A DNA stretch of 25,069 nt from assembly GCA_964016885.1 (NCBI GenBank), contig CAXHJY010001725.1:1-25069 (forward strand). The letters are read 5' to 3'. Origin of the DNA: Eledone cirrhosa (lineage: Eukaryota). The notes beneath the pieces were generated by a model, which saw nothing but the letters and a program-made list of their open reading frames with translations, made no database searches and was not told the origin of the DNA. Position numbers and translations under genes: made by a program. This document shows, one piece after another, positions 11,584-25,069 of this stretch; position 1 is the first letter of the stretch, and the number at the start of each line of letters is the position of its first letter.

Positions 11584-13332
11584 GTTCTTTGAGTCTCAGT
11601 CATTGATGTTAGTTAACTGGAAAGTTTGTTGAAATGAATATCAAGCCACTACCTGCAGCCTCAGATATTCAGGACGTATCGGAGGGTTCTTGCTGTTCCC
11701 AGCAAGCATGCCTTTTGAAGCGTTCCAAAAAGCGTGGCGGAGCCAATTTTCTTTAACCATCCCTGGAAACTTTTCGAGATAGTACCTAGTGCGCCCATGA
11801 CAATCGGGACCACTTTGACTTCATGGCAGTTCCAAATCCTTTTTACCTCCCACTTTAAGTCCTGGTGTCGGTTAATTTTCTTCCTCTCCTTCTCTTGCAC
11901 TCTCGTGTCGAATGGCCAGGCCACATCCACAATTAGGCACGATCTTTTTTCCTTGTCCAAAACCACCAGGTCAGGCCTATTGTATTCCAGTTTCTTCTCC
12001 GTCTGTATCCTAAAATCCCACAACACCTTCACCTGATCGTTTTCTATCACCGACTCTGGCTTATGCTCATACCACTTCTCAGAATGTGGTAAATTGTTTA
12101 CTTTGCATAGGTGCCAGTGGATCACCCTGCCCATCACATCATGTCTCCAGCCCTTATAGTGAGTCTGGGCTAGGTGTTTACACTCGGATACAATGTGAGC
12201 CACAGTCTCCTCTCTCTCTCTCCACGGATCCTGCACAGTGGGCTAGTCTCCTCCTTGTAAATATGGTGTTTCAACCACTTCGTTTTGAGGGCCTGCCCTT
12301 GCGCAGCCATTAACATTCCTTCTGTAGCCTTTTTAAGGTCTCCAGTTCCATGTCTGTGGATCTCTGAATTCAGTTTTCTCAAAGAAGGTACTATGAAGGG
12401 ATTTTTCATGAAGGCTGCTCTTTCTCCTTGTTGTTATTTCCTCCTTGGACATCCCCTGGTCTATTGTCCTCTCCTTCAGTACAATTCTGAGCATTGGCTC
12501 CTTACTATCAGTCACGTATTTGTGTAGGTTGTTTTTCTCCATCTGAACACAGTCCTCTATGCTGATAAGACCTCTTCCACCTTCAGATCTCCTTAAGTAG
12601 AGTCTATCGACATCACTCCTCTTGTGGAACATGTTGTAGATAGTCAATAGCTTCCTAGTCTTCCTATCCATTTCTTTTTGTTCAGCAACATTCCATCTCA
12701 GAATTCCCGCACTGTACCTAATAATAGACACAGCTCGGGAATTTACTGCACTTATTGCATTCCTACTGTTCAGATGTGATTTTAATACGCTCCTTACTCT
12801 CCGAATGTATTCAGATCTTATCAATTCCTTCATTTTTTTGTTCTTGATGTCATCAGCCTCCAGAACACCCAAATACTTCTATCCTTCTTCAGTGTCAATT
12901 TCCTTTATCATCTCACCTGTTGGTACCTGGATTCCGTTGCTTCTACTCAATTTACCCCTCTTCATCACAAGGACTCCACACTTACTAATACCAAATTGCA
13001 TACATATATCATTGCTGAAAATACGGACAGTGTCAACAAGCACATCCAACTCCTTCTCACTCTTCCCGAAGAGCTTAAGATCGTCCATGAAGAGGAGGTG
13101 ATTGATGGTAAGCTCTCCCTTTCCCAACTTGTATCCTGCTCTCACTTTTCGCAGTATAATGGTCAGGGGCATCAGGGCAAGGACAAACAACAGAGGGGAC
13201 AGACTATCTCCCTGGAAGATACCTCTCTTGATCTTCACGCCTCCCAAGGATTCTCCAGCTGATGTTAACTCTGTTTTCCAGGACTTCATACTTTTGCTCA
13301 ACAACTGGCTGATGTTATCTGCCACCTTGAAG
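11584..13332 (-). mobile_element. 5'-truncated Dong/R4-clade non-LTR retrotransposon inserted in (TAA)n
   Basis: RT motifs GIFQGDSLSPLLF and HLLFMDDLKLF, RLYLRRSEGGRGL, a decayed CCHC knuckle, RHD and RLE motif RPDLVV...DVAWP. (TTA)n flanks it at 11564-11583 and 13333-13359. Confidence 0.92.
11661..13332 (-). pseudogene. Disrupted RT-RLE polyprotein (C-terminal part)
   Basis: Split over ORFs 12879-13388, 12333-12872, 12170-12409 and 11661-12236 by an in-frame TAG (12879-12881, just before KYLG) and by frameshifts. Confidence 0.9.
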
Positions 13333-13486
13333 ATTATTATTATTATTATTATTATTATTCCTGAGAGGGTCGTGGGGACCTCAAACACTCCTTCCAGCGG
13401 GTCCTGTCACAAGCAACTGCAGTGTCACAGGAGACACATGTTCTATAATCTCCATTGTCAAGTCTATTTCTATACACATTGTTATC

Positions 13487-14032: not shown

Positions 14033-14116
14033 ATTTGTTTCGACACACGATTTCATATCAAAAACCTCGCAAAACAAATTCATCGCCATTATATATATAT
14101 AACTGGATAATGGCCG

Positions 14117-14299
14117 TGGATTGGCAGTATCGGTAGAGGGTCGGACGCCATGCTTTCCAGCATAGTTACGTCCCTTTACGATCTGAGTTCAAATCCCGCC
14201 GAGGTTGACTTTGCCTTTCATCCTTACGGGGTCGATAAAATAAAGTACCAGTAATGCACTGGATAATTGCTGGCCTTGTGCCTAAAGTAGAAACAATTA
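14117..14299 (+). mobile_element. tRNA-derived SINE, copy 5
   Basis: Essentially identical to 5608-5790. I see one substitution (gggtaatt vs ggataatt). Confidence 0.92.
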
Positions 14300-14419
14300 T
14301 ATATATATAACCTGAGGGCGGTCGACGCAGCTACAAGTCGCTAAAATACCGGCCGCCCTCTTGTCTCTGATTTAAACACCAAGGATTTTTATCTGGTATA
14401 TTCCTTCGTTATATTTTAA

Positions 14420-16153: not shown

Positions 16154-16425
16154 TAAAAAACAATGCATAAAAACAAAGAAACAGTTCCTTATATTAAAAA
16201 ATTCATCATTTTACGATCGTTTCTATTTTTGAATACATATTTTCTTTTCACGATATTTGGATTTCATTGAGTTCTTCATACGGATTGGACACTACCGTAT
16301 ATTTTGGTAGATTTATCTACATATATATATATATATAAAAGACGTAAAATACAAAAATGTGGAACAATTATATGAAAGACGTAAAATAAGAAAATTATAA
16401 TAATTAACTTACTTACTTAATTTTC

Positions 16426-16503
16426 ACTCCAACTAATTAGTTTCTGAAAGGGGATATACATAGTGTTCAAAACCATGGACAATTCATTTCTTCATCAAGG
16501 AGT
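16426..16503 (-). ncRNA. Type I hammerhead motif with a C3-to-U core change
   Basis: Minus strand reads acucc-UUGAUGA-(long stem II)-GAAA-cuaauuag-UU-ggagu. Confidence 0.7.
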
Positions 16504-17005
16504 CAATTCTCTGTTAAGATCCCAGGCGATAGGCGGACACAGGGATCTCAAACAAAAATAATTCAGTGAATGGAAAAGAAGCAAGCGCGGACTAAATTTC
16601 AAGACACTTTCATATAATTGTTCTACATTTTTGTATTGAACCACAAAGTTACTAAGACAAAACCTATATCTTGCTAGCATAAGTATACTTCTGTATAAAT
16701 ATGTTGGTAGATATACTAATTCTTTATAATTATCTCCAAATTATTTGTTGAGCAAAAATTCGCCTGAATTACGGCTATGATTCATAGTAGTATTTTGGCT
16801 ACTGTCTTTTTAACACCTCCTCCTCCTCACTGATTAACCTCGATGTCACGTGATTGATTCTTTTGAATTTGCCACTGCCCGGGAAGGTAGTGAAATTTTC
16901 AGTGTCTTGAAATTTAGTCCGCGCTTGCTTCTTTTCCATTCACTGAATTATTTTTGTTTGAGATCCCTGTGTCCGCCTATCGCCTGGGATCTTAGCAGAG
17001 AATTG

Positions 17006-17083
17006 ACTTCCTGATCAAGAAAGGAATTCTCCATAGCTTTGAACACTATGTATATCCCCTTTCAGAAACTAATTAGTTGGAGT
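17006..17083 (+). ncRNA. Type I hammerhead motif with a G8-to-C core change
   Basis: acuuc-CUGAUCA (17011-17017), stem II gaaagg/ccuuuc plus cauag/cuaug, GAAA (17065-17068), cuaauuag-UU-ggagu. Confidence 0.7.
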
Positions 17084-17247
17084 GAAACTTAAGTAAGTAA
17101 GTTAATTATTATAATTTTCTTATTTTACGTCTTTCATCTAATTGTTCTATATTTTTGTATTGAACCACAAAGTTACTAAGACAAAACCTATATCTTGCTA
17201 GCATAAGTATACTTCTGTATAAATATGTTGGTAGATATACTAATTCT

Positions 17248-17278
<31 letters not shown>

Positions 17279-17411: not shown

Positions 17412-17414
<3 letters not shown>

Positions 17415-17620
17415 CCTTCCACCGTTTTTCCTCCATTTTCTCCCCTCCCCCCCCCCTTTTTCTAAATGTCTCTCCACCACTCCCTCACACACCCCTCTTC
17501 CCACCCACTTTTCGCCTGAAGAAGGGCTTATGCCCGAAACGTCCCCCCCCCCACTCAAGAGCGTGAAACTAATAAACCTTTGTTTGTACTGCCTCTCTGT
17601 TTTTGTTCCCGTTCCAGTTT

Positions 17621-17625
<5 letters not shown>
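17412..17625 (+). mobile_element. Short (TA)n-embedded PLE pLTR-like element
   Basis: Pyrimidine-rich head, minimal hammerhead, AATAAA at 17571-17576, tail homologous to 1581-1660, (TA)n on both sides. Confidence 0.7.
17509..17543 (+). ncRNA. Minimal PLE-type hammerhead core
   Basis: CUGAAGA (17516-17522)-A-GGGC-uuau-GCCC-GAAA-CG-UC. The 3' strand of stem I is replaced by poly-C. Confidence 0.7.
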
Positions 17626-19794: not shown

Positions 19795-20006
19795 GGTTTC
19801 TTATATAGGCACAAAGCCAGCAATTGGGGGGAGGGGAAAGCCGATTAAATCGACCCCAGTGCGTGACTGGTACTTTTATTTTATCGACCCCGTAAGGACG
19901 AAAGTGGAAAGTTAACAAAGGCGGGATTTTAACTCAGATCATAAAGGGCCGTAACTCTATGCTGCAAAGCATGTTGTCTGACCCTCTACCGATACTGCCA
20001 ATCCAC
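19795..20006 (-). mobile_element. tRNA-derived SINE, copy 6, with a 16-bp target-site duplication
   Basis: Same family as copies 1-5. TSD aaaccttccaagtaat at 19779-19794 and 20007-20022. Confidence 0.92.
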
Positions 20007-20100
20007 AAACCTTCCAAGTAATCTTAATATTTACCTTTCTGTATACACACTGAGGGCTTTTTCAGTAGTGTTTACAATCCATTATTCGGAGAACTATATA

Positions 20101-20987: not shown

Positions 20988-21018
<31 letters not shown>

Positions 21019-21046
21019 CACTCAGATATATATATATACACACACT

Positions 21047-21113
<67 letters not shown>

Positions 21114-21646
21114 ATATATACTCATATATATATATATATATATATACTCACTCATATATATATATATATACTGACTCATATATATATACTCACTCATATA
21201 TATATATATATATACTGACTCATATATATATACTCACTCATATATATATATATATATACTCACTCATATATATATATATACTCACTCATATATATATATA
21301 TATATACTCACTCATATATATATATATATACTCACTCATATATATATATATATATACTCACTCACATATATATATATATATACACACACTCTCACATATA
21401 TATACACACTCACACATATATATACACACACTCACACATAAATATACACACACTCTCACATATATATACACACACTCACATATATATATACACACACTCT
21501 CACATATATATATATATACACACACTCTCATATATATATATACACACACTCTCATATATATACACACACACTCACACATATACATATATACATATATATA
21601 TATATACACACACACACTCACACATATATATATATATACACACACA
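20988..21646. repeat. (TA)n/(CA)n compound microsatellite with ctcactca units
   Basis: Read directly. Confidence 0.93.
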
Positions 21647-21791
21647 GAACATGGCTATTTATTCTTCTCTGTAGTCTAAGTTATTTCCCACATGTCAATC
21701 ACTTCACTTTATTTTTACGTTTCTCTGTATTTTACTCCGAAATAGAAATTTAGCCTATTTTTTAAAAGTGCTTCTCTGAAGTTTGTTTATC

Positions 21792-25069
<3,278 letters not shown>

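Follow-up and report, generated by a model that had tools for sequence, protein, structure and literature searches.

A 25,069-nucleotide stretch of Eledone cirrhosa DNA (contig CAXHJY010001725.1, assembly GCA_964016885.1; hereafter the window) contains what is likely a single insertion of a multi-copy, non-coding 524-bp hammerhead element. A Penelope-like element (PLE) probably supplied the reverse transcriptase (RT) and endonuclease that placed the copy in a (TA)n tract, and the lesions in the two ribozyme cores are likely neutral and private to this copy. The insertion combines a partial tandem with an inverted copy, is bordered by (TA)n at both ends of this one locus, and holds no coding remnant. 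Its junctions, along with G at ribozyme position 8, recur in other copies.

Self-comparison of the window confirmed the geometry given in a preliminary description of this DNA. Inverted arms of 261 bp (16348-16608 and 16901-17161; 12 mismatches, no gaps, E = 1e-120) enclose a 292-bp spacer, and a 122-bp direct repeat (16607-16728 and 17131-17252) differs at two sites. We named the segments of the unit a (16901-17130), b (17131-17161), c (17162-17252) and d (16729-16900), so that the insertion reads rc(a b), then b c d a b c. The tandem part, which follows the 261-bp inverted copy, measures 646 bp, or 1.23 units at a 524-bp period, and the two parts overlap by 2 nt at the inner junction (16607-16608). 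Since the middle partial copy lacks the hammerhead, the locus has one hammerhead per strand, without two consecutive hammerhead-bearing units. On the right the insertion breaks off in CTTTA, which also comes just before TA where c meets d internally, and the two outer ends differ by 91 bp, with segment b (31 bp) between the two putative priming points. The arrangement had also been called typical of PLEs, and it agrees with the insertions described in the available text of PMC8557442 and with the opposite-strand hammerhead pairs in that of PMC4209133. The parts of the locus are:

16321-16337, no strand: (TA)n left flank, read from the sequence, the putative target site
16338-16347, minus: re-copy of 10 nt of the element (17125-17134), located at the outer left end, read from the sequence
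16348-16608, minus: inverted 5'-truncated copy, segments a and b, 95.4% identical to 16901-17161
16607-16728, plus: partial tandem copy, segments b and c, a "pseudo-LTR" (pLTR) lacking the hammerhead by self-comparison and motif scan
16729-16900, plus: segment d of the 524-bp unit, non-coding
16901-17161, plus: right arm of the full unit, segments a and b, by self-comparison
17162-17252, plus: segment c, the 3' end of the insertion, by self-comparison
17249-17273, no strand: (TA)n right flank, by repeat annotation

We scanned 81 non-repetitive frames of the window against Pfam, leaving out one low-complexity frame of 82. A single frame exceeded the cut-off (12882-13406, RVT_1, E = 8e-10); it belongs to a broken non-LTR retrotransposon remnant spread over several frames of the minus strand at 11661-13406, which may resemble the RTE clade. 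The four frames overlapping the insertion had no Pfam match, no ORF of 90 aa lies within it, and neither the scan nor the ORF listing revealed the RT or GIY-YIG ORF of an autonomous Penelope-like element there. The 524-bp element does not qualify as an autonomous PLE. Among the scanned frames we found no host exon, although such a scan is blind to untranslated or unprofiled exons. Pol III boxes and polyadenylation hexamers were absent from the sense strand of the unit. The block of segment d at 16819-16872, which far more abundant relatives have in common with it, includes an E-box-like palindrome, CACGTG at 16847, and is a candidate internal promoter.

When the two strands of the window were scanned for the structure, a type I hammerhead emerged in each arm. 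As the preliminary description had it, there is one per arm, with U3 in one and C8 in the other, so that each arm departs once from the core CUGANGA / GAAA / NUH. The hammerhead features, detailed for the right arm, are:

16426-16503, minus: left type I hammerhead, core TTGATGA (U3) at 16498, GUU triplet
17006-17083, plus: right type I hammerhead, core CTGATCA at 17011-17017, C8 at 17016
16960-16993, plus: stable hairpin just 5' of the hammerhead, the same in both arms
17006-17010/17079-17083, plus: stem I, 5 bp
17018, plus: extra A after A9
17019-17024/17058-17063, plus: stem IIa
17032-17036/17046-17050, plus: stem IIb
17064, plus: extra unpaired A between C11.1 and G12
17065-17068, plus: GAAA
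17068-17077, plus: stem III, a 10-nt perfect palindrome
after 17078, plus: predicted cut, GUU triplet

In both hammerheads 47 nt separate the core from GAAA. With stem I open, the helices around the core comprise 5 bp in stem I, 6 bp in stem IIa (5 in the left arm, where one pair is broken at 16486, equivalent to 17023) and 5 bp in stem IIb. Shuffling the 524-bp unit by dinucleotide 1000 times yielded no comparable match, at thresholds set after the motif had been seen. Stem III has 3 bp, or 10 bp as a dimer. Lunse et al. are said to have described, in 2017, PLE hammerhead variants that cleave as dimers.

Both arms carry the extra A after A9 (17018) and a further A between C11.1 and G12 (17064). 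Stem II thus does not close directly on G12 in either arm, although A17064 can be read equally well as an A10.1-A11.1 mismatch. The preliminary description took the consensus of the arms for an intact ribozyme and overlooked this unpaired A, with which the consensus is not clearly intact. Nor did it mention the broken stem IIa pair of the left arm, the 524-bp period or the 10-nt re-copy at the left end. The extra A is probably a trait of the family, and no change at 17064 occurs among the 40 of 204 substitution rows and 12 of 30 indel rows listed. We did not find an extra base between C11.1 and G12 described in the literature searched, although the supplementary alignments of PMC4209133 and PMC7229834 and the tables of bioRxiv 10.64898/2026.07.22.740005 may hold variants of this kind, with an extra base or a long stem II. 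The variants in section 8 of PMC3088659 are U3-A8, A6C, A6a, U13a, U15.1-A16.1 and a U-U mismatch at 10.1-11.1, U-U being the mismatch best tolerated there. Stem II had been called unusually long, which holds against the 6-8 bp helix of PLE hammerheads (PMC4209133) but less so within the window, where four other motifs have 28, 31, 31 and 48 nt. Judged from sequence, what is unusual about this putative ribozyme is confined to the extra A and its 47-nt stem II domain.

The long stem II and the core lesions would lower the score of these motifs in Rfam. A search of the region returned six matches at E ≤ 10, none of them to a hammerhead family and all sub-threshold and unrelated, and a search of the whole window returned only miRNA-like matches driven by microsatellites. 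As for the lesions themselves, a U3-G8 combination may make for a weak rather than a dead ribozyme, and our literature search found no paper assaying U3-G8 alone. The earlier statement that the C3-G8 pair is essential fits the right arm, G8C having abolished activity in an anole PLE hammerhead (PMC11167929, in its available text), and may overstate the lesion in the left.

Other repeats fill much of the window, 44% of which is masked as tandem repeats. Eight more CTGANGA...GAAA hammerhead-like motifs, belonging to other families, lie at 1319(+), 3375(-), 5170(+), 6360(-), 7113(-), 14425(+), 17516(+) and 19750(-), with 12-48 nt from core to GAAA. The motifs at 5170, 7113, 14425 and 19750 have 28, 31, 31 and 48 nt there; of these four, only 5170 and 7113 passed the structural scan, a related pair (76% over 63 bp) with a stem I of 8-12 bp. 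The motif at 17516 is compact and broken by a poly-C run. It sits in another short element (17412-17624), which has (TA)n tracts on either side and whose 3' part (17546-17612) recurs on the other strand at 1594-1658 with 84% identity. A SINE-like repeat of about 190 bp occurs in six copies (810-1044, 2889-3061, 3148-3256, 5607-5801, 14108-14309 and 19855-20039), with 5608-5801 and 14117-14309 being 99% identical. Directly after (AT)n, a 110-bp fold-back at 5978-6087 is 93% self-complementary and related to 4845-5026 (78%). Positions 21008-25052 form a degenerate (TA)n array of 4 kb in which G is confined to one strand.

Four of eight listed public sequencing runs (X1, X4, X6 and X7) were aligned to 16729-17252 at a minimum likeness of 80%. 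Matches comprised 1474 contigs in X1, 35 contigs in X4, 4888 reads in X6 and 3836 reads in X7, although RAD reads concentrate at few loci and do not count as independent, and depth does not equal copy number. Most matched records were 90-99% or less than 90% alike, indicating that the sequence is multi-copy and diverged. Depth was about a hundredfold higher in blocks 16819-16872, 17053-17142 and 17161-17250, which are common to more distant relatives; the second of these takes in GAAA and stem III as well as the cut site and stem I. Read by eye, a loose-end consensus of three X4 contigs kept stem IIb with a different loop. Metagenome contigs scanned with a 21-nt pattern gave no match, nor did viral contigs. 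The sole match to a gapped pattern, in a bacterial contig (L001), had just 15 nt in common and was attributed to chance. At 3003-3133, upstream of a 549-codon ORF, that contig has an intergenic 21-bp perfect inverted repeat around GAAA...CTGATGA, possibly a hammerhead in permuted form or else a REP-like element.

At position 8 of the ribozyme (17016), G was read in 44 of 44 reads of X6, in 32 of 32 of X7 and at the full depth of X1 (12 contigs), with X4 lacking coverage. The other copies had been expected to keep the core, and at this position they did, in 76 of 76 reads and the 12 contigs. Because every related record covering the site reads G, C8 appears private to the right arm of this locus, and G8 is supported as the family state. 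None of 16995, 17009, 17011 (C3), 17023 and 17029 has a row among the 40 of 204 variant rows listed; the ten listed rows that we checked each reach at least 77% in some run. U3 is thus probably not fixed in the family, an indirect indication of C3 as the family state, and the same goes for 17009, where the preliminary description has C.

The joint between c and d occurs in other copies, in 10 X1 rows with differing intervening letters, one X4 row and two X7 reads. The d-a junction is spanned by four pieces with 13-21 other letters and at least 31 nt on each side. Since both junctions recur in diverged copies, the 524-bp unit is a property of the family rather than a one-off deletion, and they support a head-to-tail arrangement of a non-coding multi-copy unit. 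The unit as a whole is predicted to be strongly structured: it folds at -123.3 kcal/mol (z = -4.3), none of 100 shuffles was equally stable, and as a circle it is 58% paired, in a region of about 31% GC.

These observations bear on whether the insertion is instead a 3' relic of an autonomous PLE, with a-b-c as its pLTR and d as a lineage-specific internal scrap. The layout is that of autonomous PLE insertions (PMC8557442), PLE hammerheads come mostly from truncated copies (PMC4209133), both in the available text, and short contigs and reads would miss an ORF-bearing minority. We nevertheless regard a relic as unlikely, given the recurrent junctions, the absence of any coding signal, the structure throughout the unit, and loose ends inside d that resemble d rather than new sequence. 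The preliminary reading of the repeat as a pLTR thus stands as to its Penelope-type layout, with the repeat belonging to the unit of a non-coding element and not to the relic of a coding one.

The arms differ at 12 sites, namely (in right-arm positions) 16995, 17009, 17011, 17016, 17023, 17029, 17035, 17037, 17088, 17138, 17148 and 17150. Seven fall within 29 nt (p = 0.003, for a window width chosen afterwards), differences are enriched in the hammerhead relative to the remainder of the arm (p = 0.034), and no difference falls in the inner 94 bp (p = 0.05). Five of these seven lie outside the core, of which only 17023 breaks a pair. Both alleles at 17035 and 17037 exist in other records, the left one in 40 and 36 of 81 reads, and either allele keeps stem IIb. 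Allele shares at these two sites track those at 16958/16977 across four read classes (r = 0.71-0.85), a linkage inferred rather than phased. The left arm has the minority alleles at 16958/16977, in common with the right arm, and the majority alleles at 17035/17037, which hints that it is a mosaic of two family types, arising from two templates, conversion or polishing. Without the two family variants the cluster has p = 0.02-0.07, and p = 0.08-0.27 if 17009/17011 are also counted as one event. Hence, family variants reduce the clustering of arm differences without fully explaining it.

The cluster, including one or both core lesions, could also be an artefact of assembly or polishing, in a repeat that folds back on itself and belongs to a large family. 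C at 17016 appears in no read or contig examined, and the mosaic look of the left arm at 16958/16977 versus 17035/17037 is what polishing might leave. Template switching or gene conversion would yield the same mosaic, however, the runs may represent other individuals, and rare variants drop from contigs. Together with the lack of any indel in 261 bp and an about even split of differences between the arms, this leaves an artefact distinctly unlikely.

We also considered how the RNA would fold. The isolated 91-nt hammerhead motifs did not outdo their shuffles in folding (z = -0.01 and -0.20); only the stem II domain did (z = -2.4). In the isolated right motif the four helices had pair probabilities of 0.78, 0.94, 0.98 and 0.43. 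In read-through RNA of either strand, equilibrium prediction placed all four helices at probability 0.0, with the bases of the motifs paired with the opposite arm at 0.90 and 0.93, and the antisense arm is transcribed first on either strand. A host transcript is thus predicted to stay uncut even with intact cores, because the arms pair and unfold both hammerheads. For sense RNA of the element itself, lacking the left arm, equilibrium prediction gave stem I a probability of 0.0007, making monomer activity doubtful.

The preliminary description offered drift or selection against cleavage of a host transcript as the cause of the lesions. Under selection, each ribozyme would have been inactivated independently because each cut a host transcript on its strand. 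In its favour, both arms are struck in the same two-base pair, with a chance of about 0.002 under uniform mutation or 0.05 given the cluster, and the chance of both being struck somewhere in the 12-nt core is 0.06-0.07; C8 is absent from other copies; and retrozymes are under-represented in the genic regions of Xenopus (bioRxiv 10.64898/2026.07.22.740005, in its available text). The core is not enriched in differences relative to the remaining hammerhead (2 of 12 versus 5 of 66 sites, p = 0.29) or the remainder of the arm (p = 0.10). The coincidence was spotted after the fact, in one copy among many. Selection is highly unlikely to be responsible, as it requires transcription of both strands, the only one of 81 frames with a Pfam match is an RT remnant rather than a host exon, pairing of the arms is predicted to unfold both ribozymes in read-through RNA, and a single hammerhead per strand precludes a dimer in cis. 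Drift is the better supported explanation, with the core unenriched and two of the clustered differences being standing family variants.

The insertion of a non-coding hammerhead element by PLE enzymes could have proceeded as follows. RNA longer than the unit, multimeric or circular, would have served as template while the PLE RT-endonuclease nicked (TA)n; more-than-unit copying from a circle has been proposed (PMC4209133). After first priming at 17252, 646 nt would have been reverse-transcribed, through an uncut ribozyme site. Second priming, on the opposite target strand, would have aborted at 17134 and then succeeded at 17161, giving the 261-bp inverted copy; the 10-nt re-copy at 16338-16347 likely reflects such abortive priming on (TA)n before re-priming. 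In vitro, an anole element initiates internally at two nearby RNA sites on both strands, and hammerhead mutants still insert (PMC11167929, in its available text). The inverted and tandem copies may have been joined at the 2-nt microhomology during repair. Within the living family, multimeric RNA would be divided into 524-nt units by the hammerhead, likely acting as a dimer via the palindrome. Part of the arm differences are likely older than the insertion or came from conversion with another copy. The remainder would have accrued after insertion without selection, since the arms would pair in read-through RNA and unfold both ribozymes.

More tentatively, it is possible that the family is an abundant non-autonomous one with an active hammerhead variant, that its PLE-footprint insertions constitute structural evidence of PLE enzymes integrating retrozyme-like RNAs, and that inversion silences the ribozyme. 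The variant would combine the 47-nt two-helix stem II, the extra A between C11.1 and G12 and a dimer-type stem III, a combination absent from the available text of the literature searched. If true, the templates would be circular or multimeric and the ribozyme silenced in host read-through RNA.

Taken by itself, the insertion is an ordinary dead copy of a retroelement that bears a hammerhead, and the window holds eight further hammerhead-like motifs. Its architecture has already been described for PLEs, and by its sequence the 524-bp element is non-autonomous and Penelope-type or non-LTR-retrozyme-like. The comparisons below extend to the available text of each source. In Craig et al. 2021 (PMC8557442), PLE insertions feature partial tandem copies, an inverted truncated copy, a (TA)n bias and non-autonomous partners. 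Those with pLTRs, including the putatively non-autonomous Chlamys partners, share with our locus the partial tandem, the adjacent inverted 5'-truncated copy, differing 3' end points and the (TA)n target. They have a 30-40 bp tail at one end, whereas here the outer ends differ by 91 bp, and the 524-bp element is without an RT or GIY-YIG ORF and has no autonomous partner among the sequences analysed.

Compared with the PLE minimal hammerheads of Cervera and de la Pena 2014 (PMC4209133), ours are likewise type I with a 5-bp helix I, G10.1-C11.1, an extra base after A9 and a small palindromic helix III, and opposite-strand pairs occur there 100-700 bp apart. They differ in having a 47-nt two-helix domain in place of a 6-8 bp stem II, the extra A between C11.1 and G12, and uncompensated U3-G8 and C3-C8 combinations where that study has a compensated U3-A8. 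Should the family RNA cleave, an extra base before G12 would add to what the hammerhead core is known to tolerate.

Non-coding hammerhead units are known as non-LTR retrozymes and have been proposed to be PLE derivatives (PMC7229834; bioRxiv 10.64898/2026.07.22.740005). Our element resembles these in its non-coding repeat unit, single type I hammerhead, multiple copies, low GC, strongly self-paired RNA and proposed PLE dependence. Its unit measures 524 bp, against 170-400 nt in PMC7229834 and 51-972 bp in bioRxiv 10.64898/2026.07.22.740005. In contrast to retrozymes, the locus has 1.23 units rather than two hammerhead-bearing ones, and its hammerhead is PLE-like with no evident loop 1-loop 2 contact. 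With one hammerhead per strand, the copy falls outside what bioRxiv 10.64898/2026.07.22.740005 terms an active retrozyme. Inverted pairs of this kind provide an internal control for comparing core decay with neutral change in host genes, for which hundreds of copies would be needed. At the level of the family, a non-coding unit with a PLE-type footprint bears on the proposal that animal retrozymes represent PLE derivatives that are non-autonomous.
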